From UHGV virus genome UHGV-1844342: DNA of 11,823 nucleotides; one strand, 5' to 3'. Below are positions 1 to 11,823 of the stretch, piece after piece. Position numbers and translations under genes: made by a program. The number at the start of each line of letters is the position of its first letter. Position 1 is the first letter of the stretch. The notes beneath the pieces were generated by a model. It searched no databases. It saw nothing but the letters and a program-made list of their open reading frames with translations, and was not told the origin of the DNA. The stretch comes from a virus.

Positions 1-16
1 GCCAGTGATGGGTTAA

Positions 17-490
17 GTGATAACAGGTGTCTGGAAATATAGGGGCAAATCCAGTTGGGTTTGGACTGTACCAAAAGATCACTCAAAAACTGGTGTTGAA
101 ATCGTCAGACCAGTACCTGAAATTCTACGACAGTGGGTAACGGATGTTCACGAAGAGACAAAACATACTGGTTATGTGCTGGGAAGTCTGCGAATTAGAG
201 AAAGCGTAAGCAAGATTGGGGGGAAAATCGGTAAACGTTTGGGCCATGAAAAACAATGGTCACTACACGACCTTAGAAGAACGCTATCTACTCATCTAAG
301 TGATCTCGGTGTTGAATTTTATGTAGTAGAACAACTGTTAGGCCATGCGCTACCTGGCGTGGCAGGTGTTTACAACCGGAGTAAGTTTATGGCTAAAAAA
401 CTGGATGCTCTGGAACTCTGGACTACATATCTCAATAGCATCGCAGGTGCTGATTCAAAAGTGACAATCCTCAAACAAAAGGTTGGTTAA
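17..490 (+). pseudogene. int: Tyrosine integrase (P4/CP4-57 type), C-terminal catalytic fragment only; 5'-truncated or frameshifted
   Basis: Translation has SKTG (conserved Lys region), HDLRRT (His-x-x-Arg), LLGH and GVYNRS (catalytic Tyr) motifs of tyrosine recombinases. In-frame TAA at 14-16 and stops in all three forward frames within the first 45 nt, so the N-terminal domain and box I Arg cannot be read through from upstream. Confidence 0.65.
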
Positions 491-491
491 C

Positions 492-719
492 ATGAAAAAA
501 ATGGCAATTGTTGATAAAAAGGGTCTGGAGTACATTCCTAACATTGACCGAATGATCCGTGAGAAAGAATGTCGGGAGCTAACCACTCTTGCGAACAGCA
601 CACGCTGGAAGCTGGAGAAGGAAGGAAAATTTCCTAAGCGGATCAAGATTGGTTCCACTGCTGTTGCATATCGTCTTTCAGAAGTGCAGGCATGGATTCG
701 AGGTGAGTGGGTAGTTTAA
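492..719 (+). CDS. alpA: AlpA/Vis-family prophage transcriptional regulator (winged HTH)
   Basis: 75-aa product; ...ELTTLANSTRWKLEKEGKFPKRIKIGSTAVAYRLSEVQAWI... fits the AlpA/Vis HTH pattern; sits directly after int as in Gram-negative PICIs; ATG 492 with AAGG 9 nt upstream (track start 483 is a TTG). Confidence 0.8.
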   Translation: MKKMAIVDKKGLEYIPNIDRMIREKECRELTTLANSTRWKLEKEGKFPKRIKIGSTAVAYRLSEVQAWIRGEWVV

Positions 720-744
720 ATTATCTCAGAATAAAATATTATGA

Positions 745-780
745 ATTACTGATTTGAGAATTTGTACTCAAATCAGTAAT
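745..780. terminator. Perfect 14-bp inverted repeat (ATTACTGATTTGAG / CTCAAATCAGTAAT) with 8-nt loop; candidate bidirectional intrinsic terminator between alpA and the convergent minus-strand cargo gene
   Basis: Arms 745-758 and 767-780 are exact reverse complements; AT-rich flanks on both sides; lies between convergent stop codons (719 and 789). Confidence 0.55.
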
Positions 781-788
781 AACATTCT

Positions 789-1325
789 TTATAAGAGATT
801 AAATCCAAATAAAGAGTAATCATATACCGGGGTGCATTGCATTCCACTGAATATGCTGATGTTTTTTTCTGTTTCTATCCTTTTTTCAATAAGTTGTTGT
901 ATATTTTTACAGTACAATTTGTGTGTGATGTTATTATCGTAAGCCTGATATAGCAACGTCAATGTTGACGCTAGGAAACATACAGATAAAATTAAAGTAA
1001 CATATGCGGTTTTTTTATTTTTTGTCCATGATCTATTTGTTTGTGAAATATAAAGAATTCTGATGTGGATAATGGTGAGAGACAATAGCAGGCCACTCAA
1101 TAAAATAAGTATTGGGTTTGCGTATTTTATTAATGGTTGAGAGCAAAAAACTATTATAGCTCCTGTGACTGCGTATGAGAAAAAGGAGTAATTAAACTTC
1201 TTACTCCTTCTCTCAAGTATTTTAATTTCATCTTGTGTGGGGGTTTTAGATGCCTCTAATATAAGTTTATTGAATGTTTCTGTTATCTTGTTTTTTGTGT
1301 TTGTGGCTATTTTTTTTAGATTCAT
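789..1325 (-). CDS. Hypothetical small membrane protein (about 3 predicted TM segments) in an AT-rich cargo island
   Basis: 178-aa ORF on the minus strand; GGAG about 12 nt upstream of ATG; hydrophobic stretches FFSYAVTGAIIVFCSQPLI, PILILLSGLLLSLTIIHIRILYI, AYVTLILSVCFLASTLTLLY; local GC far below the rest of the island. Confidence 0.55.
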   Translation of the reverse strand: MNLKKIATNTKNKITETFNKLILEASKTPTQDEIKILERRSKKFNYSFFSYAVTGAIIVFCSQPLIKYANPILILLSGLLLSLTIIHIRILYISQTNRSWTKNKKTAYVTLILSVCFLASTLTLLYQAYDNNITHKLYCKNIQQLIEKRIETEKNISIFSGMQCTPVYDYSLFGFNLL

Positions 1326-1639
1326 AGCATTCTAACTCCCTTAACTTATTTATTACTTTCTCTTTATGATAAGAGAGGGGAATGACTTGGTAAAGTGATT
1401 TGTCATTAATAATGATAATCCTTGCGATAAATATTTCTGCAAGTTATTTATCTGTTTGTTGCTATCTTGTTAAGCGTTGGGTGTGGTTTATGTTTGGAGC
1501 GACTTTATTTAATCGTGATTTTATGGATTTATATTTATATCCTGTAAGATAAGCGCATGTTAGTTCAGGAGTAGTGTCAGATAAAATTATTCGGAGTAGA
1601 ACTACCTTTTCTGTTTATTGCCAGTATTTACATAGCAAT

Positions 1640-1666
1640 GCGCCGTAGTTACTCACATCACGGCGC
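1640..1666 (-). terminator. Weak candidate hairpin (GCGCCGT ... ACGGCGC, 7-bp stem, 13-nt loop) just downstream of the minus-strand regulator gene
   Basis: Inverted repeat 1640-1646 / 1660-1666, 10 nt past the stop of the 1676-1978 gene; no clean U-tract. Confidence 0.25.
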
Positions 1667-1675
1667 TGATACTAA

Positions 1676-1978
1676 TTATTCAGATTCTTTGGCTTTACGC
1701 CGCTGGAGTTCTTCACGAGCGACGGCTACGAGTTGCCCGATTTCCTCCGCTGCCTTGATGCCGATTTGTTCGACCTTAGCTAAGGCATCCAGTGAAGACA
1801 CGAGGGGATTTTCTCCGCTTCCTTCTGCCTGGCGGCGGGCGATCTCACCGCGCATGGCGGTTACTATGAATCCGGCGTTGCTCTCGCCGTCCAGTTTTAC
1901 GGATTCCATGCCCTCCATAACATCGTGGGGAACCCTGATCGTTGTCATTTGCGATTTTGCATTTTTGTATACAGACAT
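1676..1978 (-). CDS. Putative ribbon-helix-helix (Arc/CopG-like) DNA-binding protein; candidate master repressor of the island, divergent from the early operon
   Basis: 100-aa ORF; N-terminal MTTIRVPHDVMEGMESV...NAGFIVTAMRGEIARRQ resembles a beta-strand/helix/helix RHH fold; divergently arranged relative to the operon starting at 2187 with an operator-repeat array in between. Confidence 0.45.
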   Translation of the reverse strand: MSVYKNAKSQMTTIRVPHDVMEGMESVKLDGESNAGFIVTAMRGEIARRQAEGSGENPLVSSLDALAKVEQIGIKAAEEIGQLVAVAREELQRRKAKESE

Positions 1979-1989
1979 AGTTAATCACC

Positions 1990-2110
1990 AATTTGTTATG
2001 TGTATATCACTATACACAAAAGTGATATATAAAAACACTTGCAATGTATATCACCACAATATAATGTATATCTCACATTATGGTCGCTATGTATCTCACA
2101 ATGATCGATT
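1990..2110. promoter_or_regulatory. Divergent promoter/operator region: four direct copies of TGTAT(A)TC(T)CAC(A) at 2001, 2045, 2065, 2090, one inverted copy (GTGATATA, 2022-2029), and a consensus -10 TATAAT (2060-2065) with TTGCAA (2039-2044) 15 bp upstream
   Basis: Repeats read directly from sequence; the -10 hexamer overlaps the repeats, consistent with a repressed early promoter. Confidence 0.6.
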
Positions 2111-2186
2111 CATAAAAACGACGAAACCCGGCAGTGCGCGAACACTAACCGGGCTTCTAACCAAACCGTTAAACGAGGTAACGATT

Positions 2187-2552
2187 ATGGCTGGAACACA
2201 GCATACCCAAACTCACCCTAAATTTATATACACCTTTCTGGCACTACACCACGACCGCATGGCAGATGGAGCAACTACGGTACATGTAGCCGCTGACACG
2301 CTGGTTGATGCCCGCAAGATGGTTAAGGAGATGGGCTATACTGCGGCTTTCTGGAAAGGGCGTGAAGAAAACACGCTGTTTATTCAGAAATGCGAAAACA
2401 ATTTCATCTGGCGTTTTATCGCCCTGAGTACGGCACAACCGCGCGTGATTCACATCGTGGCCACCAGCGAACAGGAAGCCCGCCAGCAATCCCCGGCTGG
2501 TTGCGTGAGGGTATTCGCCGCCCGTATTCGTCAGGAGGTATGCCGTGCTTAA
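2187..2552 (+). CDS. Hypothetical protein, first gene of the early operon
   Basis: ATG 2187 with GAGG 8 nt upstream; 121 aa; the track ORF 1638-2552 is the same frame, but its upstream part overlaps the operator region and the minus-strand regulator gene. Confidence 0.55.
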   Translation: MAGTQHTQTHPKFIYTFLALHHDRMADGATTVHVAADTLVDARKMVKEMGYTAAFWKGREENTLFIQKCENNFIWRFIALSTAQPRVIHIVATSEQEARQQSPAGCVRVFAARIRQEVCRA

Positions 2553-2730
2553 AACCTTCCGTGTATTTGCCCGAGCGGTTAACCCACGAGGCCACACAAT
2601 TGGTATCACTCAGAACGTGAAGGCTGTTAATGTTCAGACGGCTATTGCTGTGGTGAGAAGCGAATCATCAGAATATGGCTTATCACAAGTCATTATTTCA
2701 GCAGTGTATGAATTAAAAGAGGTGCATTAA
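2545..2730 (+). CDS. Hypothetical small protein (61 aa)
   Basis: GTG start 2545 with strong AGGAGG 6 nt upstream; overlaps the previous stop and the next start (TAATG at 2727-2732), i.e. translational coupling. Confidence 0.5.
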   Translation: MLKTFRVFARAVNPRGHTIGITQNVKAVNVQTAIAVVRSESSEYGLSQVIISAVYELKEVH

Positions 2731-2921
2731 TGCAGGAAATTACATTACACGAAGCCGCTGAACGTGCGCACCAGACAGAAATTATTTGCCGCCTTCTTGA
2801 GGTATACCCGAACAAAATTACAGATGCTGATATATCCGCACTGGCGAGCCTACTGGCGCGTCTTTCGGGAAGTGTCGCTAGTTTTTTGATTGAGGAAGAA
2901 AGTAAGCTGGTGGGGGATTAA
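2730..2921 (+). CDS. Hypothetical small protein (63 aa)
   Basis: ATG with AAGAGG upstream; stop followed immediately by the next start (TAAATG). Confidence 0.5.
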   Translation: MQEITLHEAAERAHQTEIICRLLEVYPNKITDADISALASLLARLSGSVASFLIEEESKLVGD

Positions 2922-3143
2922 ATGAATACAGAACGGGAAGTCTTTTTTAAATTGTTAGCATGTGCAGAAAGTTCATTAACTTTAAATAATTCAGCAAAAG
3001 CAATATTAAATATGTGGCTTGATTGCATAAATGACAATGAAGATGCAAATATTGCTTATGGCCTGTTGTCACTTATTGATGAAGCAGCAGAAAAACTCAA
3101 TGACGCAATAAATAGTGCCCTGTTATCAAATAAGTCGAGTTAA
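2922..3143 (+). CDS. Hypothetical small protein (73 aa), AT-rich moron-like gene inside the early operon
   Basis: ORF with GGGGGA upstream; base composition clearly lower in GC than flanking genes. Confidence 0.45.
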   Translation: MNTEREVFFKLLACAESSLTLNNSAKAILNMWLDCINDNEDANIAYGLLSLIDEAAEKLNDAINSALLSNKSS

Positions 3144-3160
3144 GTCGAGGAATAAATAAT

Positions 3161-3460
3161 ATGGAAATGAAAAATTCTGGCTTTATTGCCAGCGGCCCCG
3201 CTCGGCCTGAATTTATGAACGGCGATATTTACCGCGATAAATACGGCGGCACGGTAACGATTAAAGGCGTGGCAGAACGGCGCATCACTTACCGCCGTGA
3301 GGGGTATAGCTATGACTGCGTGATGCCTGTTTATCAGTTCCGGCGTGATTTTTCCCTGGTATATGCCGCACCTCGCAGTAAGCCCACCAGCAGGGAAAAA
3401 GCGCGGGGAAACATCCAGAAAATGAAAAGCATGATTAACGCATTCAGGGGCAAAAAATGA
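3161..3460 (+). CDS. Hypothetical protein (99 aa), translationally coupled to the replication gene
   Basis: GAGGAA upstream of ATG; stop overlaps the start of the downstream gene (ATGA at 3457-3460). Confidence 0.55.
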   Translation: MEMKNSGFIASGPARPEFMNGDIYRDKYGGTVTIKGVAERRITYRREGYSYDCVMPVYQFRRDFSLVYAAPRSKPTSREKARGNIQKMKSMINAFRGKK

Positions 3461-5208
3461 AACTGGCACCGAACTTAAAAAAACAGCCACGCGACAGACT
3501 GACAGAGGTAATCATCTTTGCAGGTAGTGATGCGTGGAGCCATGCGAAAGAGTGGCAGGAATGGGCGGGTAAACATATTGCCGCCGACGATGTGCCGCCT
3601 GTCGTGCTGGCTGATGAGCAACTGAAAAACATCATCGATTACCGGATCATTGATGAAGATCGTCAGTGTGTGCGTGTTTACCGCGCAGGACATATCACAG
3701 AGCACAGCATGACGCAGATTGTTACGTTACTGGCTGTGGCTGGAGTGAAGACCGTACACGAATACGCGGGGATTACTGACACCAGCCCCGTGGATTTATC
3801 CGACCAGTTGCCGCGACTCAAAGAGGAATGCGAGCGTGGGGAAAGTCTGGTGCTTAATCTTCCGACGAAGCAAAAGGCGCAACTTTCACAGATGGCAGAC
3901 AGTGAACGTGCACAACTACTTGCCGATCGCTTTGATGGTGTGTGTGTTCATGCAGAAAGTGAAATCGTCCACGTATGGCGCGGCGGGGTATGGTGTCCGG
4001 TCAGCACAATGGAGCTGAGCCGCGAAATGGTGGCGATCTATTCAGAGCACAGGGCCACGTTCAGCAAACGTGTAATCAATAACGCCGTGGAAGCGTTAAA
4101 AGTTATTGCCGACCCCATGGGGGAGCCGTCCGGTGATTTACTACCGTTCACTAATGGTGTGCTTAACCTGAAAACGGGGGATTTTTCTCCGCACTTACCG
4201 GAGCACTGGAGCACCACGCACAATGGCATTGAGTACACGCCACCAGTAGCAGGGGAAAACATCCGCGATAATGCGCCAAATTTCCATAAATGGCTTGAAC
4301 ATGCTGCAGGAAAAGACCCGCGCAAGATGATGCGTATATGTGCCGCGTTATACATGATTATGGCGAACCGCTACGACTGGCAGATGTTCATTGAGGCCAC
4401 CGGAGACGGGGGAAGCGGTAAGAGTACATTTACCCATATTGCCACCCTGCTTGCTGGCAAACAGAACACCGTAAGCGCAGAGATGACATCACTCGATGAT
4501 GCAGGAGGGCGCGCGCAGGTTGTCGGGAGTCGTCTTATCGTCCTTGCCGATCAGCTGAAATATACGGGGGAAGGCACGGGCATCAAGAAAATCACGGGAG
4601 GCGATCCCGTTGAAATTAACCCGAAATATGAGAAGCGATTCACGACGATAATAAGGGCGGTGGTACTGGCAACCAATAACGACCCGATGATCTTTACCGA
4701 ACGGGCCGGAGGTGTGTCACGCCGTCGGGTGATTTTCCGGTTCGACAACATTGTAAGGGAGGACGAAAAAGACAAGGAATTACCGGAAAAGATAGCGGCA
4801 GAAATCCCCGTAATTATCCGCCGCTTGCTGGCTAATTTTGCTGACCCTGAAAAGGCACGGGCTTTATTACTGGAACAGCGTGACGGTGATGAAGCTCTGG
4901 CAATAAAGCAGCAAACGGATCCGGTTGTTGAGCTTTGCGCGGCGCTGGAGTTTCTGGAGGAAGCTCGTGGGCTAATGATGGGCGGTGGTGGTGACACCGT
5001 GAAGTACACGACCAGAAACAGCCTTTACCGTGTCTATATGGCCTTCATGGCATATACAGGAAAGGGGAAATGTTTGAGCGTGAATGAGTTCGGAAAGGCT
5101 ATGAGGTCAGCGGCGAAAGTTTACGGATATGAATATATTACGCGAAAAGTTAAGGGAGTCACGCAGACCAACGCAACGACTACTGATGATTGCGATGCGT
5201 TTTTATAA
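3457..5208 (+). CDS. Replication protein: SF3 helicase with primase-associated N-terminal region (P4 alpha C-terminal / D5-like family; PICI pri-rep analogue)
   Basis: 583 aa; Walker A EATGDGGSGKST (about nt 4395-4430), Walker B-like RLIVLADQ (about 4531-4554), motif C-like VLATNND; iteron origin immediately downstream. Confidence 0.85.
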   Translation: MKLAPNLKKQPRDRLTEVIIFAGSDAWSHAKEWQEWAGKHIAADDVPPVVLADEQLKNIIDYRIIDEDRQCVRVYRAGHITEHSMTQIVTLLAVAGVKTVHEYAGITDTSPVDLSDQLPRLKEECERGESLVLNLPTKQKAQLSQMADSERAQLLADRFDGVCVHAESEIVHVWRGGVWCPVSTMELSREMVAIYSEHRATFSKRVINNAVEALKVIADPMGEPSGDLLPFTNGVLNLKTGDFSPHLPEHWSTTHNGIEYTPPVAGENIRDNAPNFHKWLEHAAGKDPRKMMRICAALYMIMANRYDWQMFIEATGDGGSGKSTFTHIATLLAGKQNTVSAEMTSLDDAGGRAQVVGSRLIVLADQLKYTGEGTGIKKITGGDPVEINPKYEKRFTTIIRAVVLATNNDPMIFTERAGGVSRRRVIFRFDNIVREDEKDKELPEKIAAEIPVIIRRLLANFADPEKARALLLEQRDGDEALAIKQQTDPVVELCAALEFLEEARGLMMGGGGDTVKYTTRNSLYRVYMAFMAYTGKGKCLSVNEFGKAMRSAAKVYGYEYITRKVKGVTQTNATTTDDCDAFL

Positions 5209-5220
5209 AAAATGGCAATG

Positions 5221-5455
5221 GTTATCTACCTTGTCTACCTGACTGAAATAAAATACTTTTATTTCAATGTATTAATGCAGGTAGATAACTATTTTTCACT
5301 GTCTACCTGTTATCTACCTTATCTACCCATTTTTGTAGACAGGTAAGGAGACGGGTAGAGATGAGGTAGACAGCTATTTGGGGCTGTCTACCTCCCTGAA
5401 ACCCGCGCCATTACTGGCCTGATAACTAATCAGGTAGACAAGGTAGACAAGGTGG
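5221..5455. repeat. Iteron-type replication origin: about 12 copies of GGTAGAC(A)/GTCTACC (with GGTAGATA variants) in both orientations flanking an AT-rich spacer (5241-5278)
   Basis: Copies at about 5223, 5233, 5280, 5301, 5312, 5321, 5335, 5353, 5365, 5385, 5433, 5442; tandem pair GGTAGACAAGGTAGACAAGG at 5433-5451; directly 3' of the helicase gene as in PICI/P4 ori. Confidence 0.8.
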
Positions 5456-5497
5456 TGGTGCACAAAAAACTTTTTAAACGAGGGGGTAAAAATAAAA

Positions 5498-5740
5498 ATG
5501 CACACATCAGGAAAACTGAACAAACATATAAAGCCACATTACCGCGCCCTTGATATGGCTGAACACTGGCTAAGGGTGGCGATTAAGGCAATAGACCGCA
5601 ACGCCGGGGAAGGATACGCGAAAGCACATCCCGAACTGATAAGCGCATTCATGACAACGGCGGCTGCAAACTTTGCCACGCTGACCGAACGGGAGATTGC
5701 CGAAGCGGAGGAAGTGACAACCATCAATATTAAGTCCTGA
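5498..5740 (+). CDS. Hypothetical protein (80 aa)
   Basis: ATG with GAGGGGG upstream; no overlapping conflict. Confidence 0.5.
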   Translation: MHTSGKLNKHIKPHYRALDMAEHWLRVAIKAIDRNAGEGYAKAHPELISAFMTTAAANFATLTEREIAEAEEVTTINIKS

Positions 5741-5751
5741 GAGCAGGCAGC

Positions 5752-6201
5752 ATGACGGCGCAAATAGCAGCTTACGGGCGGCTGGTGGACGACCCACAGG
5801 TAAAACATACCAGCAAGGGAACACCCATGACACTGGCACGGATGGCGGTATCTTTGCCATGCAGCCAGGCAGATGACGGAACGGCGACGATGTGGTTATC
5901 TGTGCTGGCGTTTGGCAGACAAGCCGACGCGCTGGCAAAGCATCACAAAGGCGAACTCCTGAGCGTGGCGGGTAATATGCAGGTGAGCCAGTGGAGCGGA
6001 CAGAACGGGGAAACGCGGCAGGGCTGGCAGGTTATCGCAGACAGCGTAATCAGTGCCAGAACGGTGCGACCGGGCGGCAAAAAAGGTCAACAGGGGCAGG
6101 CTACTGATGCACTGAACAGAGCAAAACAACAGGCAGATCAGCAAGGAAGCCATCCACCAGTGGGAGATAATGAGCAATGGGGAGATGATATTCCGTTTTA
6201 A
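5752..6201 (+). CDS. ssb: Single-stranded DNA-binding protein
   Basis: 149 aa; OB-fold-like N-terminal region, Gly/Gln-rich linker, and canonical acidic C-terminal tail ...GDDIPF. Confidence 0.8.
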   Translation: MTAQIAAYGRLVDDPQVKHTSKGTPMTLARMAVSLPCSQADDGTATMWLSVLAFGRQADALAKHHKGELLSVAGNMQVSQWSGQNGETRQGWQVIADSVISARTVRPGGKKGQQGQATDALNRAKQQADQQGSHPPVGDNEQWGDDIPF

Positions 6202-6219
6202 ATATTGCCAATAAAAAAG

Positions 6220-6243
6220 GCCGGAAAAAATATATTTTCCGGC
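6220..6243. terminator. Hairpin GCCGGAAAA / TTTTCCGGC (9-bp stem, 6-nt loop) between the replication and morphogenesis modules
   Basis: Exact inverted repeat 6220-6228 / 6235-6243; an A-run precedes it on + (so a T-run follows it on the minus strand); function as a module boundary is inferred. Confidence 0.35.
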
Positions 6244-6411
6244 ATGCTACATAAATCCCGACCAAAGGGAGTGAAGATATTAACACTAATTATCCGCGCT
6301 GAAGTTGTCATCCCAAAACTTTATACAACATTGCACTCGGTTGCATGTGTTAGCATGACAAATATCGGTGATAGCATATATCCACAATTATTTTTAATGA
6401 ATGTAAAGAGG

Positions 6412-7458
6412 ATGAGTATGGTTGATTTATATTCGCCTGCCCAGCTTGTGCAGGTGGCTAATGCAGAAGAGGTGCAAAAAAAATTAAATGCATTGTTTAC
6501 CAGTTTGTTTTTCACTCGCTCGGTAATGTTTGAATCAAGAGACATTATTCTTGATACAATCGACGATCCAAATATCCCAATTGCAGCGTTTTGTTCTCCT
6601 ATGGTGGGTAGTAAAGTTTCACGTGACGAAGGGTACGAATCAAAGACAATTCGTCCAGGCTATATGAAGCCGAAAAGCAGCATTGATCCAAATAAGTTAG
6701 CTGTGCGCCCTGCTGGTGTATCACCTGAGCAATACAATGCTTTTGGAGCGCGTAATATTAAAGTTAAACAGGCGATTGTAAATCAGGCTAAAGCTATTCG
6801 TGCACGTATTGAATGGCTTGCCGTTCAGGCAATCACAACGGGGAAAAATATCATTGAGGGCGATGGCATTGAACGCTATGAACTGGACTGGAATATAAAA
6901 CCACAAAATATTATCACGCAGTCCGGCGGTGCTGAGTGGTCAGGTAAGGATAAAGAAACTTTTGATCCAAATGATGATATTGAGAGCTACGCAGAATTTA
7001 GTGAGGGCGTCACTAATATCATCATTATGGGCGGTAATGTATGGAAGAAATACCGTTCATTCAGAGCGATAAAAGAGGCTCTGGATACCCGTCGTGGTTC
7101 TAATTCCGAACTGGAAACGGCCCTTAAAGACCTTGGTGATTCGGTGAGTTTTAAAGGGTATATGGGCGATGTTGCGATTGTTGTATACAGCGGGCGTTAT
7201 ACCGACGAGGACGGAACTGAAAAACATTTCCTTGATCCTGATTTGATGGTGCTTGGCAATACGGCTCTTCAGGGGATTGTCGCCTATGGCGGTATTCAGG
7301 ATCCGGAGCTAATCCGAATGGGGCTGACTAAAGCCGAACTTGCACCGAAAAACTATATTGTGCCTGGTGATCCGGCTATTGAATATGTGCAGACACATTC
7401 AGCACCACAGCCAATACCGGCCCGCATCAATCGTTTTGTTACCGTTCGCATTGGCTAA
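6412..7458 (+). CDS. Major capsid protein, divergent homolog of lambda gpE (HK97 fold)
   Basis: ATG 6412 preceded by AAGAGG; C-terminal about 200 aa align with the lambda E fragment present in this same window (shared blocks ITQSGG.EWS..DK.T.DP.DDIE.YA, DTRRGS.SELETA.KDLG, GDVAIVVYSG, MVLGNT), roughly 55-60 percent identity there by eye; N-terminal third far more divergent. Confidence 0.85.
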   Translation: MSMVDLYSPAQLVQVANAEEVQKKLNALFTSLFFTRSVMFESRDIILDTIDDPNIPIAAFCSPMVGSKVSRDEGYESKTIRPGYMKPKSSIDPNKLAVRPAGVSPEQYNAFGARNIKVKQAIVNQAKAIRARIEWLAVQAITTGKNIIEGDGIERYELDWNIKPQNIITQSGGAEWSGKDKETFDPNDDIESYAEFSEGVTNIIIMGGNVWKKYRSFRAIKEALDTRRGSNSELETALKDLGDSVSFKGYMGDVAIVVYSGRYTDEDGTEKHFLDPDLMVLGNTALQGIVAYGGIQDPELIRMGLTKAELAPKNYIVPGDPAIEYVQTHSAPQPIPARINRFVTVRIG

Positions 7459-7467
7459 GGGGGAGCA

Positions 7468-7809
7468 ATGGCTACTCATTACACTGAACTCATGGCTGGC
7501 ACTGAAGCACTGGTGACTACGCTGGGGATATTTTCAGCTAATAAAGGGGTAATTCCTGCATTTACGCCACTGATGCAGGAAGATGCAACAGGTGCACTGG
7601 TGGTATGGGATGGTTCGAGCGTAGGTAAAGCGGTTTATGTTTCCGCTGTACAAATCGACACCGCGAAAAAAACACAGGCTCAGGTCTATAAGACAGGTGT
7701 CTTAAATGTTGATGCTCTGAACTGGCCTGAGTCTGTAAAAGAACTGTCAGTAAAGATTGCAGCGTTTGTTGGCTCAGGTATTTCTGTTCAGCCGCTGGCT
7801 CGTGTGTAA
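7468..7809 (+). CDS. Head decoration protein, lambda gpD-like
   Basis: 113 aa; AAGGGGGAG RBS; blocks TPLMQEDATGALVVWDG, VYKTGVLNVDALNWPES and FVGSGISVQ resemble lambda gpD (TPLM..VAWDG, FYKSGTFRYEDVLWPEA, FAGTAISIV) as recalled. Confidence 0.7.
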   Translation: MATHYTELMAGTEALVTTLGIFSANKGVIPAFTPLMQEDATGALVVWDGSSVGKAVYVSAVQIDTAKKTQAQVYKTGVLNVDALNWPESVKELSVKIAAFVGSGISVQPLARV

Positions 7810-7820
7810 AGGGGGATACA

Positions 7821-8204
7821 ATGCAGAATCATTACAATGACCTTAAGCCAATTGCCGAAATGATGTATCCGGATCCAGCAGTAGAGGAATTAAAGGCTAT
7901 TGCTGACAAAATGCGTTTAAGCGAGCGTCTTGTTGATATGAATCAGGTGATGGAACTTACAACCCTGAGTCGTCGTACACTGCTAAACCTTGAAGCACGT
8001 GGAGAGTTCCCCGAACGCGTGCAGGTTACGGAAGGGCGTAAGGCCTGGTATTTAAGCGAAGTGATCGACTGGATAAACAATATTCCGCGCGCTTCTGAAT
8101 ATTGCCGCGTACCTGTCCCAAAAAAGCCAGATGCGGCGCTATGCCTCAAGATTGAGCGTGTACGCCGCAATGCGCGGGATGGTCGCTATAAGCTGATTGG
8201 TTGA
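7821..8204 (+). CDS. Second AlpA-family HTH protein with about 40-aa N-terminal extension; candidate late/packaging regulator
   Basis: 127 aa; AAGGGGGA RBS; core ELTTLSRRTLLNLEARGEFPERVQVTEGRKAWYLSEVIDWI matches the AlpA/Vis winged-HTH pattern. Confidence 0.7.
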   Translation: MQNHYNDLKPIAEMMYPDPAVEELKAIADKMRLSERLVDMNQVMELTTLSRRTLLNLEARGEFPERVQVTEGRKAWYLSEVIDWINNIPRASEYCRVPVPKKPDAALCLKIERVRRNARDGRYKLIG

Positions 8205-8219
8205 TGAAATTAGGGCCCG

Positions 8220-8300
8220 TTCTGGCTGGCGGGTCCTTTCCGGCGATCCAGAACGTTACGGGGCGGCGACCTCGCGGGTTTTCGCTATTTATGAGCATTT
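8220..8300 (+). other. cos: Lambda-type cos site: cosQ-like segment, cosN 12-nt cohesive-end sequence GGGCGGCGACCT (8261-8272), and proximal cosB segment
   Basis: 8223-8294 reads TGGCTGGCGGGTCCTTTCCGG.GATCC....GTTACG GGGCGGCGACCT CGCGGGTTTTCGCTATTTATGA, matching the joined right-end/left-end sequence of phage lambda as recalled; a Nu1-like gene follows as in lambda. Confidence 0.85.
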
Positions 8301-8405
8301 TTAGGGGACTGGTGGTGGTTTTGTTGTTCGCTATATCTGTATGAATAATAAGAGAAAAACACAATCAACACACCAACCTGAAACAGTAATTAAGTTGTGG
8401 TATCA

Positions 8406-8948
8406 ATGAAATTGCACCTGATGAACAAAAAAAACATGGCAAAAAGTTGCCGTGTAAGCGCCACTGCGTTCGATAAGTGGGGAGTGATTCCCGTCGAGCG
8501 TAAGGGCCGCGAGGCGTTTTATGATGTCGCCAGTGTAATAGATAATCGGGTTAACAATGCAATCAGCCAGATTACAAACGAAACGGGCGAGATTGATGAT
8601 GATGAACTCCTACGAGTCAGGATCAGATTGCTGACAGCACAGGCAGAGGCGCAGGAGCTTAAAAACGAGCGCGAACGCGGCGACGTTATTGATACAGCGT
8701 TTTGTATATACGTGCTTTCAAAACTGGCGAGTCAGATTTCTTCAATCATGGACAGCCTGCCGCTTGCCATGACAAGGAAGTTTCCCGACATGAAGCCGTC
8801 TATGCTGGATGGACTGAAAAAAGAAGTTATCAGAGCCTGTAACGCATGCGCAAAACTTGACGAAAACATACCGCTGATGCTGTCCGATTATCTGATGGAA
8901 ACTGCCGGAAACGTACCGGATAAGTTGCAGCTGAATAAAGATAAGTAA
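8406..8948 (+). CDS. Terminase small subunit, lambda Nu1-like (winged HTH N-terminus plus gpA-interaction C-terminus)
   Basis: C-terminal two-thirds aligns with recalled lambda Nu1 (LTAQAEAQELKNER...DTAFCIYVLSKLASQISSIMDSLPLAMTRKFPDM...KLDENIPLMLSDYL vs LTRAQADAQELKNARD...ETAFCTFVLSRIAGEIASILDGLPLSVQRRFPEL...ALDELIPGLLSEYI); N-terminus more divergent; start 8406 by analogy with lambda (8421 is an alternative; track start 8397 is GTG). Confidence 0.8.
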   Translation: MKLHLMNKKNMAKSCRVSATAFDKWGVIPVERKGREAFYDVASVIDNRVNNAISQITNETGEIDDDELLRVRIRLLTAQAEAQELKNERERGDVIDTAFCIYVLSKLASQISSIMDSLPLAMTRKFPDMKPSMLDGLKKEVIRACNACAKLDENIPLMLSDYLMETAGNVPDKLQLNKDK

Positions 8949-8959
8949 CGTAGTACGCT

Positions 8960-9241
8960 ATGACTGAATCCGAAATACTGCGATTAATCCGCCGTGCTTG
9001 TGGAATCAGCAAGCAGCATGACGAACAGGCCACGCAGCCGGACAGCGTGATCGCCGAAAATTACGCGCGTGTTGTTGCTGATGTGATGCGCCGTGATGGT
9101 ATTGAGCTTAACGGCGTGGATATGCGCGACATACGGATCAGATTCCTTGAGTTGCTGGCATACCGTCGCCGTTCTCAACAACGAAGGGAGAGCGCGAAAA
9201 ACACTTATCAGTGGAAGAAGCCGGAACGGTTGCGGCGGTAG
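8960..9241 (+). CDS. Hypothetical basic protein (93 aa) in the position occupied by the large terminase gene in lambda
   Basis: ORF directly downstream of the Nu1-like gene (12-nt gap); Arg-rich C-terminus; no obvious SD; no similarity to lambda gpA N-terminus that I can see. Confidence 0.45.
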   Translation: MTESEILRLIRRACGISKQHDEQATQPDSVIAENYARVVADVMRRDGIELNGVDMRDIRIRFLELLAYRRRSQQRRESAKNTYQWKKPERLRR

Positions 9242-9983
9242 ATTCCTGATATTCAGGAAAACCACGAATCCGGGGGTTTTACTGGCGCGGTGTACACGGT
9301 GGAACGTATAGCGTTACCTGACTTATTGCATTGTAAAAAGTTGAAAGGCACGGCCTGTAAGATGGGATGTTGTGAGTAGTTTAAAGCTACCCGCAAATTC
9401 TTTCGTTGTGCTGGCACAGGCGGTTAAACCGTCGGTAACTGGATAATCCCCACTGGGGGAAAAGCTGGCTACATCCCTCACATCTGAGGACTGATAACGC
9501 AAAATTGCGTTGGCTGGCAGAGTGCAAATTTGCACGATGGCCTAACCCATTGATTCTTTCGAAAACCCCCATTGGGGGAGAACGGGGGAATAAACCTGAC
9601 TCATTGATTTTTCCACAATCCTTAATTTGAGGAAGCTGGATAGTTGCACTACCCAAAAAGTGCAGTACCCACATAGCTGCTTAATAGCGTTTATTTTTTC
9701 CGCACACCTCAAATCTGAGAAGGCCGGAATGATGACATGGCAGGATTATGATTCCTTGATTTCAAGGAGTCCTCCAGTGTGAAAATGAAATTATCTGGGC
9801 TGGTGGGTGAGTTGCTGATCTGCAACTCGGCTATGAAACTTAATAATCGAACAGCATGTAAATTCATTTCTGTGTATTGCAGCATGTATTGCAACATAGT
9901 CATTCTGGTAGAGATTATGCTCTATTTTTCCTCTTATATCATTCACATACTTACGTCATTGACTCATGTAGCCGAAGCATGAG

Positions 9984-10760
9984 GTGAATCCGCAGATGAC
10001 CCTGCGTCGCCTGCCGGATGAAGATCCGCAGAATCTGGCGGACCCGGCTTACCGCCGCCGTCGCATCATTATGCAGAACATGCGTGACGAAGAGCTGGCC
10101 ATTGCCCAGGTCGAAGAGATGCAGGCAGTTTCTGCCGTGCTTAAGGGCAAATACACCATGACCGGTGAAGCTTTCGATCCGGTTGAGGTGGATATGGGCC
10201 GCAGTGCGGCCAACAACATCACGCAGTCCGGCGGCACGGAGTGGAGCAAGCGTGACAAGTCCACGTATGACCCGACCGACGATATCGAAGCCTACGCGCT
10301 GAACGCCAGCGGAGTGGTGAATATCATCGTGTTTGATCCGAAAGGCTGGGCGCTGTTCCGTTCCTTCAAAGCCGTCAAGGAGAAGCTGGATACTCGTCGC
10401 GGCTCTCATTCCGAGCTGGAGACAGCGGTGAAAGACCTGGGCAAAGCGGTGTCCTACAAGGGGATGTATGGCGATGTGGCCATCGTCGTGTATTCCGGAC
10501 AGTACGTGGAAAACGGCGTCAAAAAGAACTTCCTGCCGGACAACACGATGGTGCTGGGGAACACTCAGGCACGCGGTCTGCGCACCTATGGCTGCATTCA
10601 GGATGCGGACGCACAGCGCGAAGGCATTAACGCCTCTGCCCGTTACCCGAAAAACTGGGTGACCACCGGCGATCCGGCGCGTGAGTTCACCATGATTCAG
10701 TCAGCACCGCTGATGCTGCTGGCTGATCCTGATGAGTTCGTGTCTGTACAACTGGCGTAA
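9984..10760 (+). pseudogene. E: Major capsid protein gpE, 5'-truncated fragment (C-terminal about 258 codons), near-identical to lambda E
   Basis: Translation NPQMTLRRLPDEDPQNLADPAYRRRRIIMQNMRDEELAIAQ...EFVSVQLA matches lambda gpE from about residue 85 to the end as recalled; in-frame TAG at 9969-9971 and non-lambda AT-rich sequence upstream; the track start is a GTG that is internal in lambda. Confidence 0.85.
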
Positions 10761-10801
10761 TCATGGCCCTTCGGGGCCATTTTCTCTCTGTGGAGGAGTT
10801 C

Positions 10802-11200
10802 ATGACGAAAGATGAACTGATTGCCCGTCTTCAGGAGCTGGGTGAGCAACTGAACCGCGATGTCAGTTTGACGGGAACGAAAGAAGAACTGGCGCTTCGT
10901 GTGGCAGAGCTGGAAGAAGAGCTTGATGACACGGATGAAACTGCCGGTCAGGACACCCCTCTCAGCCGGGAAAATGTGCTGACCGGGCATGAAAATGAGG
11001 TGGTATCAGCGCAGCCGGATACCGTGATTCAGGATACGGCTGAACTGGTCACGGTTGTGGCACTGGTGACGCTGCATACTGATGCACTTCACGCCACGCG
11101 GGATGAACCTGTGGCATTTGTGCTGCCGGGAACGGCGTTCCGTGTCTCTGCCGGTGTGGCAGCTGAAATGACAGAGCGCGGCCTGGCCAGAATGCAATAA
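10802..11200 (+). CDS. FI: DNA-packaging protein FI, lambda-like
   Basis: MTKDELIARL...LTGTKEELALRVAELEEELDDTDETAGQDTPLSRENVLTGHENEV...AEMTERGLARMQ matches lambda gpFI as recalled; GGAGGAG RBS before ATG 10802 (the track start 10763 is an upstream extension). Confidence 0.9.
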   Translation: MTKDELIARLQELGEQLNRDVSLTGTKEELALRVAELEEELDDTDETAGQDTPLSRENVLTGHENEVVSAQPDTVIQDTAELVTVVALVTLHTDALHATRDEPVAFVLPGTAFRVSAGVAAEMTERGLARMQ

Positions 11201-11211
11201 CGGGAGGCGCT

Positions 11212-11823
11212 GTGGCTGATTTCGATAACCTGTTCGATGCTGCCATTGCCCGCGCCGATGAAACGATACGCGGGTACATGGGAACGTCAGCCACCATGAC
11301 ATCCGGTGAGCAGTCCGGTGCTGTGATACGTGGTGTTTTTGATGACCCTGAAAATATCAGCTATGCCGGACAGGGCGTGCGCGTTGAAGGCTCCAGCCCG
11401 TCCCTGTTTGTCCGGACTGATGATGTGCGGCAGCTGCGGCGCGGCGACACGCTGACTTCCATTGCCCGGCAATTCGGCACGACGGTCACGAGCATTGTCG
11501 CAATCAATGATCTAAAAAATGAATCTGATCGCAATGAGCAGGACGGCATCAGGTATATGCTTATGGGCTTCTTTCAAGGGCCTCGCAATTTGTACCAACA
11601 CAATCACATTGGCTCCGGTGTAAGCAATTCTATTTCCGTAATCATTGAAGCATCTTTCTTCCTCCATCTACTTGATGGGCACAGCATTACTCAAAACGGA
11701 CGCTGGATTCCGGCCAAAGCAGATTATCACGAGATTTATCAAAAGATGCCCAAGCATATTGATCGTTGGAAGCTTGTACGCCTACTAAAGAAGCGTGATC
11801 GTAGGTTGAAGAAAGATCAATGA
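11212..11823 (+). CDS. FII: FII-like head-tail joining protein: first about 82 codons lambda FII-like, then an unrelated lower-GC C-terminal extension (chimeric or disrupted gene)
   Basis: GTG start with GGGAGG RBS; MADFDNLFDAAIARADETIRGYMGTSAT...VRQLRRGDTLT matches lambda gpFII as recalled, then diverges at about nt 11458 (lambda continues IGEENFWV...); the frame nevertheless stays open for about 120 more codons to the TGA at the window end. Confidence 0.6.
   Translation: MADFDNLFDAAIARADETIRGYMGTSATMTSGEQSGAVIRGVFDDPENISYAGQGVRVEGSSPSLFVRTDDVRQLRRGDTLTSIARQFGTTVTSIVAINDLKNESDRNEQDGIRYMLMGFFQGPRNLYQHNHIGSGVSNSISVIIEASFFLHLLDGHSITQNGRWIPAKADYHEIYQKMPKHIDRWKLVRLLKKRDRRLKKDQ

Follow-up and report, generated by a model that had tools for sequence, protein, structure and literature searches.

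Breakpoint in the capsid gene

The locus raises the question of why a lambda-type phage's gene E, for the major capsid protein, begins abruptly within the gene, behind unrelated DNA and downstream of a second, divergent E gene that belongs to a satellite. The DNA analyzed, hereafter the window, is a stretch of 11,823 nucleotides that forms positions 1–11823 of a metagenome contig (17.5 kb, covered 3.6x; ENA ERZ1311620 NODE_1641). A preliminary description made from the letters alone had suggested that satellite and helper might have recombined, that an insertion might have taken place between them, or that a resident prophage might have been inactivated by a satellite. The analyses presented here leave little doubt that positions 53–9979 are a phage-inducible chromosomal island (PICI) of the kind embedded in its helper (HE-PICI), of the 11capE type, integrated at site E:Phage_cap_E:80 in a lambdoid gene E, and that the break at 9969/9970 is its attR. 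Window 9970–11456 is the part of the lambdoid helper prophage situated just to the right of the satellite ('E, FI and FII).

In the megablast comparison of window 9600–11823 with phage genomes, the lambda-type DNA covered positions 9970–11456, where FI is complete while E is represented by its 3' part and FII by its 5' part. The stretch was 96.9% identical to lambda 6370–7856 and 99.0% identical to phage PhiR49_1; the E sequence, earlier called lambda-identical, is thus of the lambda type, the identity being only approximate. Its abrupt onset was confirmed, with the start at 9970 instead of about 9965: the intact E alleles of approximately 3,200 E. coli genomes match the window from 9970 on only, and this comparison fixes the junction at 9969/9970.

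The 3' part of the helper E was located by megablast and tblastn at 9972–10760 on the plus strand (codons 80–341 and the stop codon), residues 80–341 being encoded by 9972–10757 and 100% identical to the E protein of PhiR49_1. Residues 1–79 were absent from the window except as the divergent paralogue at 6421–7455, and tblastn did not match them to the DNA upstream of 9970 even at E = 10. Lambda E starts at about position 6135, so that roughly the first 79 codons are missing from the window, in agreement with the tblastn result.

The DNA upstream of the break (40–44% G+C) is unrelated to E. It forms the non-coding right end of the satellite, that is the left arm of attP (9242–9969, plus strand), and has no E-coding capacity. 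The G+C content is 0.40 for 9700–9969 versus 0.58 for 9970–11456. As described earlier, a TAG stands in the E frame at 9969–9971, preceded by a further seven in-frame stops in the 190 nt upstream. Of this TAG, the T still belongs to the satellite arm as its final base, and the AG already opens the att core AGCCGAAGCA. The loss of one or two nucleotides proposed for the junction was not found. No base is missing; the apparent indel arose because the satellite's own att arm, ...GACTCATGT (CATGT), had been aligned against the E sequence ...GGATATGTCA (TATGTCA).

The 3' fragment of E keeps an in-frame ATG at 9996, nine bases after GAGGTG (window 9981–9998), and in the annotation of the source contig the gene begins at this ATG and encodes 254 aa. 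Read-through transcripts could thus, in principle, yield an E protein shortened at the N-terminus.

The satellite in complete E. coli genomes

The whole window was searched against 5,426 complete E. coli genomes, and full-length matches to window 53–11456 reached 99.97–100% identity, with 100% in four genomes. In genome GN06489 the same segment differed at three positions. There the satellite is preceded on the left by nu1, A, W, B, C, D, and a 246-nt E' annotated as 'missing C-terminus', and followed on the right by 'E ('missing N-terminus'), FI, FII, Z, U, V, G, T, H, and other tail genes. Between these lie, in order, int, alpA, the accessory genes, the primase gene, SSB, the capsid homologue, the decoration homologue, an HTH gene, the small terminase gene, and orf93. 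The complete genomes therefore show the satellite inside gene E of a lambdoid prophage, and of the readings first considered it was insertion of the satellite into the helper that proved right. They also contain the rest of the prophage; the source contig itself runs into unrelated genes.

The description of the helper E as truncated holds for the window, where only the 3' part is present, but the gene as such is split: in the matching complete genomes E codons 1–81 are found directly upstream of the satellite integrase gene, about 10.9 kb to the left. For the window's own molecule, which includes attR and only a part of int, we infer the nested arrangement from these matching genomes.

The junction between E' and int was detected in 173 of the 5,426 complete genomes. 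The attR junction with the arm of the window was present in 45 finished genomes, with at least 90 nt on each side, and further genomes had diverged arms at the same attR point. In NRG857c the element is inserted at the same codon of a different E allele, with the core AACCCAAGCA, and the E–FI–FII region is 95.4% identical. The helper of GN06489 resides at the tRNA-Arg/folD (DLP12) site and that of NRG857c at icd. Since the same site is used in different helpers, the integration is site-specific and not one inherited accident.

These genomes also bear on the explanation of prophage decay, in which a deletion would have removed the 5' end of E and the satellite would merely adjoin the remnant. 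The window alone shows only the 3' part of E and a cut FII, and many helpers of such elements look truncated (PMC10111431), both of which would suit decay. Nevertheless, this explanation is very improbable and was excluded because the missing half of E abuts the other end of the satellite. In the complete genomes the missing 81 codons stand on that side, a direct repeat of 10 bp is present, and an intact E results when the halves are joined. Moreover, the junction recurs in the 173 genomes, a second helper prophage is split at the same codon, and the cut in FII is unique to the contig of the window.

Some local changes were seen among the complete genomes. The portal gene of the GN06489 helper (locus 3496–5097) is annotated as a pseudogene with an internal stop, and the composite may therefore no longer be inducible. 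FDAARGOS_1296 has an IS66 insertion in the matched region, which covers the satellite and the adjoining helper late genes, and in other genomes DUF2971 genes are listed within the element.

Attachment site and reconstitution of E

In GN06489, attL reads ...GGATATGTCA AGCCGAAGCA CTTAGCATGG..., and in the window attR (9960–9989) reads TGACTCATGT AGCCGAAGCA TGAGGTGAAT. Intact E across the site is GGATATGTCA AGCCGAAGCA TGAGGTG, the restored E at attB being GGATATGTCAAGCCGAAGCATGAGGTG. The attR copy of the core occupies 9970–9979 on the plus strand, and the same 10-mer is found at both attL and attR of GN06489. It has exactly two copies in the 27-kb GN06489 locus, 10,888 bp apart, and a single full occurrence in the window.

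When one such unit was deleted in silico, a 1,026-nt open reading frame encoding a complete 341-aa E was obtained. The rejoined protein differs from the E of PhiR49_1 in one aligned residue, the annotated starts being two codons apart. A 10-bp identity block is thus present at both junctions and the E joined in silico is intact. The lone 10-mer is not significant by itself, with 0.79 matches expected when one mismatch is allowed; the case rests on the paired junctions and not on the core.

The junction was also found in the published catalogue. The supplement of PMC10111431 includes the entry Eco2673.11.E_Phage_cap_E_80, whose attR arm is identical to the 52 nt adjoining the core, and the whole attR of the window (the 52-nt arm, the core, and 85 nt of E) agrees with this entry letter for letter. 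The sequence 'agccgaagca' is the identity block listed for site E:Phage_cap_E:80 in the supplement of PMC10111431, where 201 elements are catalogued for the site.

A doubled motif, TGTGTATTGCAGCATGTATTGCA, was located at 9871–9893 on the plus strand; it is the single match in the window, with 0.03 expected by chance, and represents putative arm-type binding sites. In the window the doubled TGTATTGC motif ends about 82 bp before the core centre (9974.5), and the downstream copy, read directly from the GN06489 locus (7167–7187), begins 132.5 bp after the centre. The doubled motif of the site group is thus present in both arms. Relative to the attP centre, the published motif tgTGTATTGCantgTGTATTGCa is placed 81 ± 2 bp upstream and, in its second copy, 132 ± 2 bp downstream (PMC10111431), and the agreement in spacing presumes how the authors of that paper measured distance.

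The tRNA and Rfam scans of the window gave no matches, and the element is therefore not tRNA-associated. The promoter and terminator scan of 9200–10100 produced chance-level results only.

The satellite E paralogue was found as reported earlier, upstream of the helper fragment and in the same orientation. It encodes a major capsid protein of 346 aa (6418–7458, plus strand; Pfam Phage_cap_E 2.9e-41) that is 42% identical to the helper E over the full length, and the blocks DTRRGS.SELETA.KDLG and GDVAIVVYSG occur in both translations. Its best solved relatives in the PDB search were 3BQW (3e-121), which we take to be from E. coli CFT073, and the lambda gpE 7VI9 (1e-77).

The conserved protein blocks, the co-orientation, and the AGCCGAA common to both genes at equivalent codons could suggest that the rearrangement was made by homologous recombination between the satellite E and the helper E. 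The chance of this is very slight, and it was excluded because the junction lies outside the satellite E and the genes are without detectable nucleotide homology. The junction is about 2.5 kb downstream of the satellite gene, in non-coding DNA, and the protein identity is only 42%. Also, blastn of the satellite against the helper flanks of GN06489 found no E homology, the sole match being a cos segment of 73 nt. At the equivalent position, seven of ten bases of the satellite gene agree with the core in the ungapped register, and the full core appears only once in the window. The event, first read as possible recombination, was accordingly no homologous exchange but an integrase-mediated one, site-specific at the 10-bp core, in which nothing was deleted.

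At the codons equivalent to the att site (window 6655–6693) the satellite E reads AAGCCGAAAAGCA, differing from the core by two additional A's. The satellite thus has in its own E gene a sequence close to, but not identical with, the target of its integrase.

Chimeric assembly was considered as well, in which case the break at 9970 would be an artefact of the same kind as the contig ends. The coverage is 3.6x, and unrelated DNA is joined at 52/53 and at 11456/11457. The first 52 nt, outside the element, are unrelated to int as found in the E. coli genomes whose match begins at position 53, and the last part, 11457–11823, also outside the element, contains a LysM-like fragment followed by a Hypoth_Ymh/HEPN-like one (Pfam fragments), both fused in frame to FII. 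Neither end matched E. coli, the right end having been compared with the 5,426 genomes, nor did the foreign right end match a plasmid. Beyond the window the contig continues with RES, DUF3847, and MobA_MobL genes at lower G+C (contig 10613–16315 extract), and in E. coli genomes the remainder of FII and then Z, U, and V follow where the contig passes into foreign DNA.

Both contig ends are probably assembly chimeras, and the cut in FII and the odd 5' end of int most likely reflect chimeric assembly and not biology. For the junction at 9969/9970, however, an artefact is hardly credible and was excluded because the junction is present in finished chromosomes, the identical sequence being found in 45 finished E. 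coli chromosomes and in the published catalogue.

The remaining explanation, that there is no breakpoint and the upstream DNA encodes the E N-terminus of a divergent lambdoid allele, has practically no chance and was excluded because of the eight in-frame stops within 190 nt upstream and the lack of a tblastn match to residues 1–79, only some short agreements within the att arm (ATGT, TTACG) speaking for it.

Gene content of the satellite

The satellite begins in the window with the 3' part (146 codons) of a tyrosine integrase gene (53–490, plus strand; Pfam Phage_integrase 1.6e-11), followed by the co-oriented excisionase or regulator gene alpA (492–719, plus strand; Pfam Phage_AlpA 3.1e-15). 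The alpA product is the HTH regulator WP_000737991.1 in the annotations of both GN06489 and NRG857c.

A variable accessory zone without significant Pfam assignment occupies 789–1978 on the minus strand and includes a YlcI/YnfO family gene (1676–1978, minus strand) and a membrane-like ORF of 178 aa (789–1325, minus strand), the latter AT-rich (about 30% G+C) and with no significant family match. This ORF is kept in the elements of GN06489 and NRG857c, between alpA and the YlcI/YnfO gene.

The plus-strand region 2187–5208 contains an Icd-like gene, three small ORFs, a DUF4222 gene, and a replication gene of the primase/D5_N–DUF5906 type (3457–5208, plus strand). A listed ORF of 304 aa (1638–2552, plus strand) is probably spurious: it runs opposite the YlcI/YnfO gene, and the annotation recognizes no more than the final 121 codons, which form the Icd-like gene at 2187–2552. 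An 80-aa ORF and an SSB gene follow at 5498–6201 (plus strand; Pfam SSB 1.2e-14).

Behind the capsid gene lies a gene for a head decoration protein (7468–7809, plus strand; Pfam HDPD 4.4e-15), a paralogue of D that is 38% identical to the helper D. The next gene encodes a second AlpA-family HTH protein of 127 aa (7821–8204, plus strand; Pfam Phage_AlpA 1.4e-8; PDB 8C3T 1.6e-10). This protein had been considered as a relative of Rpp and was assigned to the AlpA family instead; the sequence search returned no PDB entry named Rpp for either it or the Nu1-like protein.

The satellite cos was identified at 8229–8301 (plus strand) as a cosQ–cosN segment shared with the helper, 73 nt long and 92% identical to the segment upstream of the helper nu1. 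Its cosN, GGGCGGCGACCT at 8261–8272, is the exact lambda cosN. The sequence downstream of cosN, at the position of cosB, has diverged from that of the helper. A full-length homologue of the Nu1-type small terminase is encoded at 8406–8948 (plus strand; Pfam Phage_Nu1 1.4e-24), 38% identical to the helper Nu1 through to the C-terminus. Because Rpp-dependent PICIs have a conserved cosQ–cosN and a different cosB, we infer by analogy that the satellite Nu1 homologue may bring the helper large terminase to the satellite cos. The last gene is a 93-aa ORF (orf93; 8960–9241, plus strand).

To the right of the attachment site the helper genes FI (10802–11200, plus strand; Pfam Packaging_FI 2.6e-56) and FII (11212–11456, plus strand; Pfam Phage_attach) follow the E fragment, FII with its 5' part only and cut in the contig of the window only.

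Proposed integration and excision

In all likelihood the satellite tyrosine integrase recombined attP (...GACTCATGT-AGCCGAAGCA-CTTAGCATGG...) with attB in gene E (...GGATATGTCA-AGCCGAAGCA-TGAGGTG...), and integration split E at codons 78–81 (K-P-K-H), with the satellite oriented like the late operon. With the satellite in place the helper would presumably be without its own capsid protein. The satellite would be replicated passively with the helper, and late read-through probably transcribes it. The helper would supply SOS sensing and most of the virion parts, as proposed for such elements in PMC10111431, while the satellite E and D homologues may provide the capsid shell and the Nu1-type small terminase probably steers the helper large terminase to the satellite DNA.

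Precise excision would then restore E. The earlier suggestion that a satellite had inactivated a resident prophage thus holds in that E is interrupted, but the inactivation would not be permanent since precise excision rebuilds the gene; the split is, judging from the joined sequences, reversible.

A further possibility, which we regard as rather doubtful, is that the embedded satellite is 'half capsid-forming', late read-through expressing only the satellite shell proteins and a satellite-specific terminase adaptor while E is split. It is suggested by the E and D homologues, the helper-type cosN with its diverged cosB, and the Nu1 homologue that aligns with the helper Nu1 up to the C-terminal region. 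The first heads built on the helper portal and scaffold would then be satellite shells loaded with satellite DNA, possibly of a different size for the 10.9-kb genome, and helper shells would be formed only after satellite excision.

Placed in the capsid gene of its own helper, the satellite would tie the head-building of the helper to its own excision, and the embedding would give it free replication and late transcription. The 'pseudogene' capsid fragments that flank PICIs in E. coli annotations are halves of a reversibly split gene.

Comparison with known elements

The HE-PICI class was reported in 2023 by Tommasini, Mageeney and Williams (NAR Genom Bioinform 5:lqad036; PMC10111431), with 11capE as the prototype and the only element for which excision was followed by experiment. 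After mitomycin C induction of 11capE, the helper–satellite composite excises and replicates, and the satellite then excises precisely, restoring E, as followed by qPCR and deep sequencing; no virions were recovered, and 11capE was described as being without terS (PMC10111431). The arrangement, the insertion site, and the exact junction sequence seen in the window were thus already published in 2023, and the window does not represent a new kind of system. Its practical value is that of a correctly recognized instance of a published class, the terS/cos module of this variant being the only mildly new angle.

The features of the class were found as follows. Gene E is split at about codon 80 without replacement sequence, with attR in the window and attL in GN06489 and NRG857c, and int, alpA, and the primase gene are on the plus strand like E, FI, and FII. 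The integrase of the GN06489 element is 99.3% identical over 411 aa to that of the prototype Eco567.11capE in NRG857c (pairwise identity), the window holding the last 146 codons. The size of 10,888 bp, int and alpA at one end, the primase module, and cos agree with the Gram-negative PICIs of about 10–15 kb (Fillol-Salom et al. 2018), and like them the element would be induced by a helper phage and depend on it for packaging. With int, alpA, primase, SSB, E, D, and Nu1 its modules follow the four-zone layout published for PICIs. Genes for tail, lysis, portal, or TerL were absent from the satellite ORFs.

The prototype and the present element have in common the insertion codon, the orientation, the 10-bp type of identity block, the doubled motif and its spacing, as well as the layout of int–alpA, accessory, primase–SSB, and E–D genes. 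The alpA and D-homologue products of the prototype are identical to those of the GN06489 element, and the nucleotide identity is 96–99% over the regions from int to Icd and from SSB to cos. The primase gene is a divergent allele, with 75–79% identity in patches. The cores also differ (AACCCAAGCA in the prototype, AGCCGAAGCA in the window), each matching the E allele of its host, and the helper of the prototype is at icd while that of the matching GN06489 is at tRNA-Arg.

The EcCICFT073-like, Gram-negative cos-type PICIs (Fillol-Salom et al. 2018, ISME J, PMC6092414; 2019, Mol Cell, PMC6739421) share with the window the int–alpA–primase organization, the lambdoid helpers, and a cos with helper-like cosQ–cosN and a different cosB. 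A capsid E homologue, represented by 3BQW, is probably shared as well. Those islands, however, reside in chromosomal genes apart from the helper, with which they interact only in trans, and their packaging is redirected by the shorter Rpp, which needs the helper TerS, whereas the window encodes a full-length Nu1 homologue.

The cf-PICIs (bioRxiv 10.1101/2022.09.08.507074) likewise have capsid-shell and small-terminase homologues of their own, but their own genes cover all head and packaging proteins, with MCP, portal, protease, TerL, TerS, and connectors, so that nothing but the tails comes from the helper. Of that set the present element contains only the E, D, and Nu1 homologues, and it is without portal, protease, and large terminase genes.

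Elements of regulated gene integrity, or active lysogeny, such as phi10403S in comK of Listeria and skin in sigK of B. subtilis, resemble the satellite in that a gene is interrupted without replacement sequence and rebuilt by precise excision. In the window, however, the gene that is split is part of a second mobile element, namely the helper phage, and the switch presumably serves the satellite and not the cell.

The last module of the satellite also differs from the prototype. After cos the window has the Nu1-type TerS gene and the 93-aa ORF, while DUF262 and HEPN genes, encoded on the opposite strand, follow in the prototype. The module before attR is interchangeable (NRG857c locus 10779–12753 versus window 8302–9949): where the prototype has the defence-like DUF262/HEPN genes, the window has the Nu1-like gene and orf93, together with non-coding DNA of 0.7 kb.
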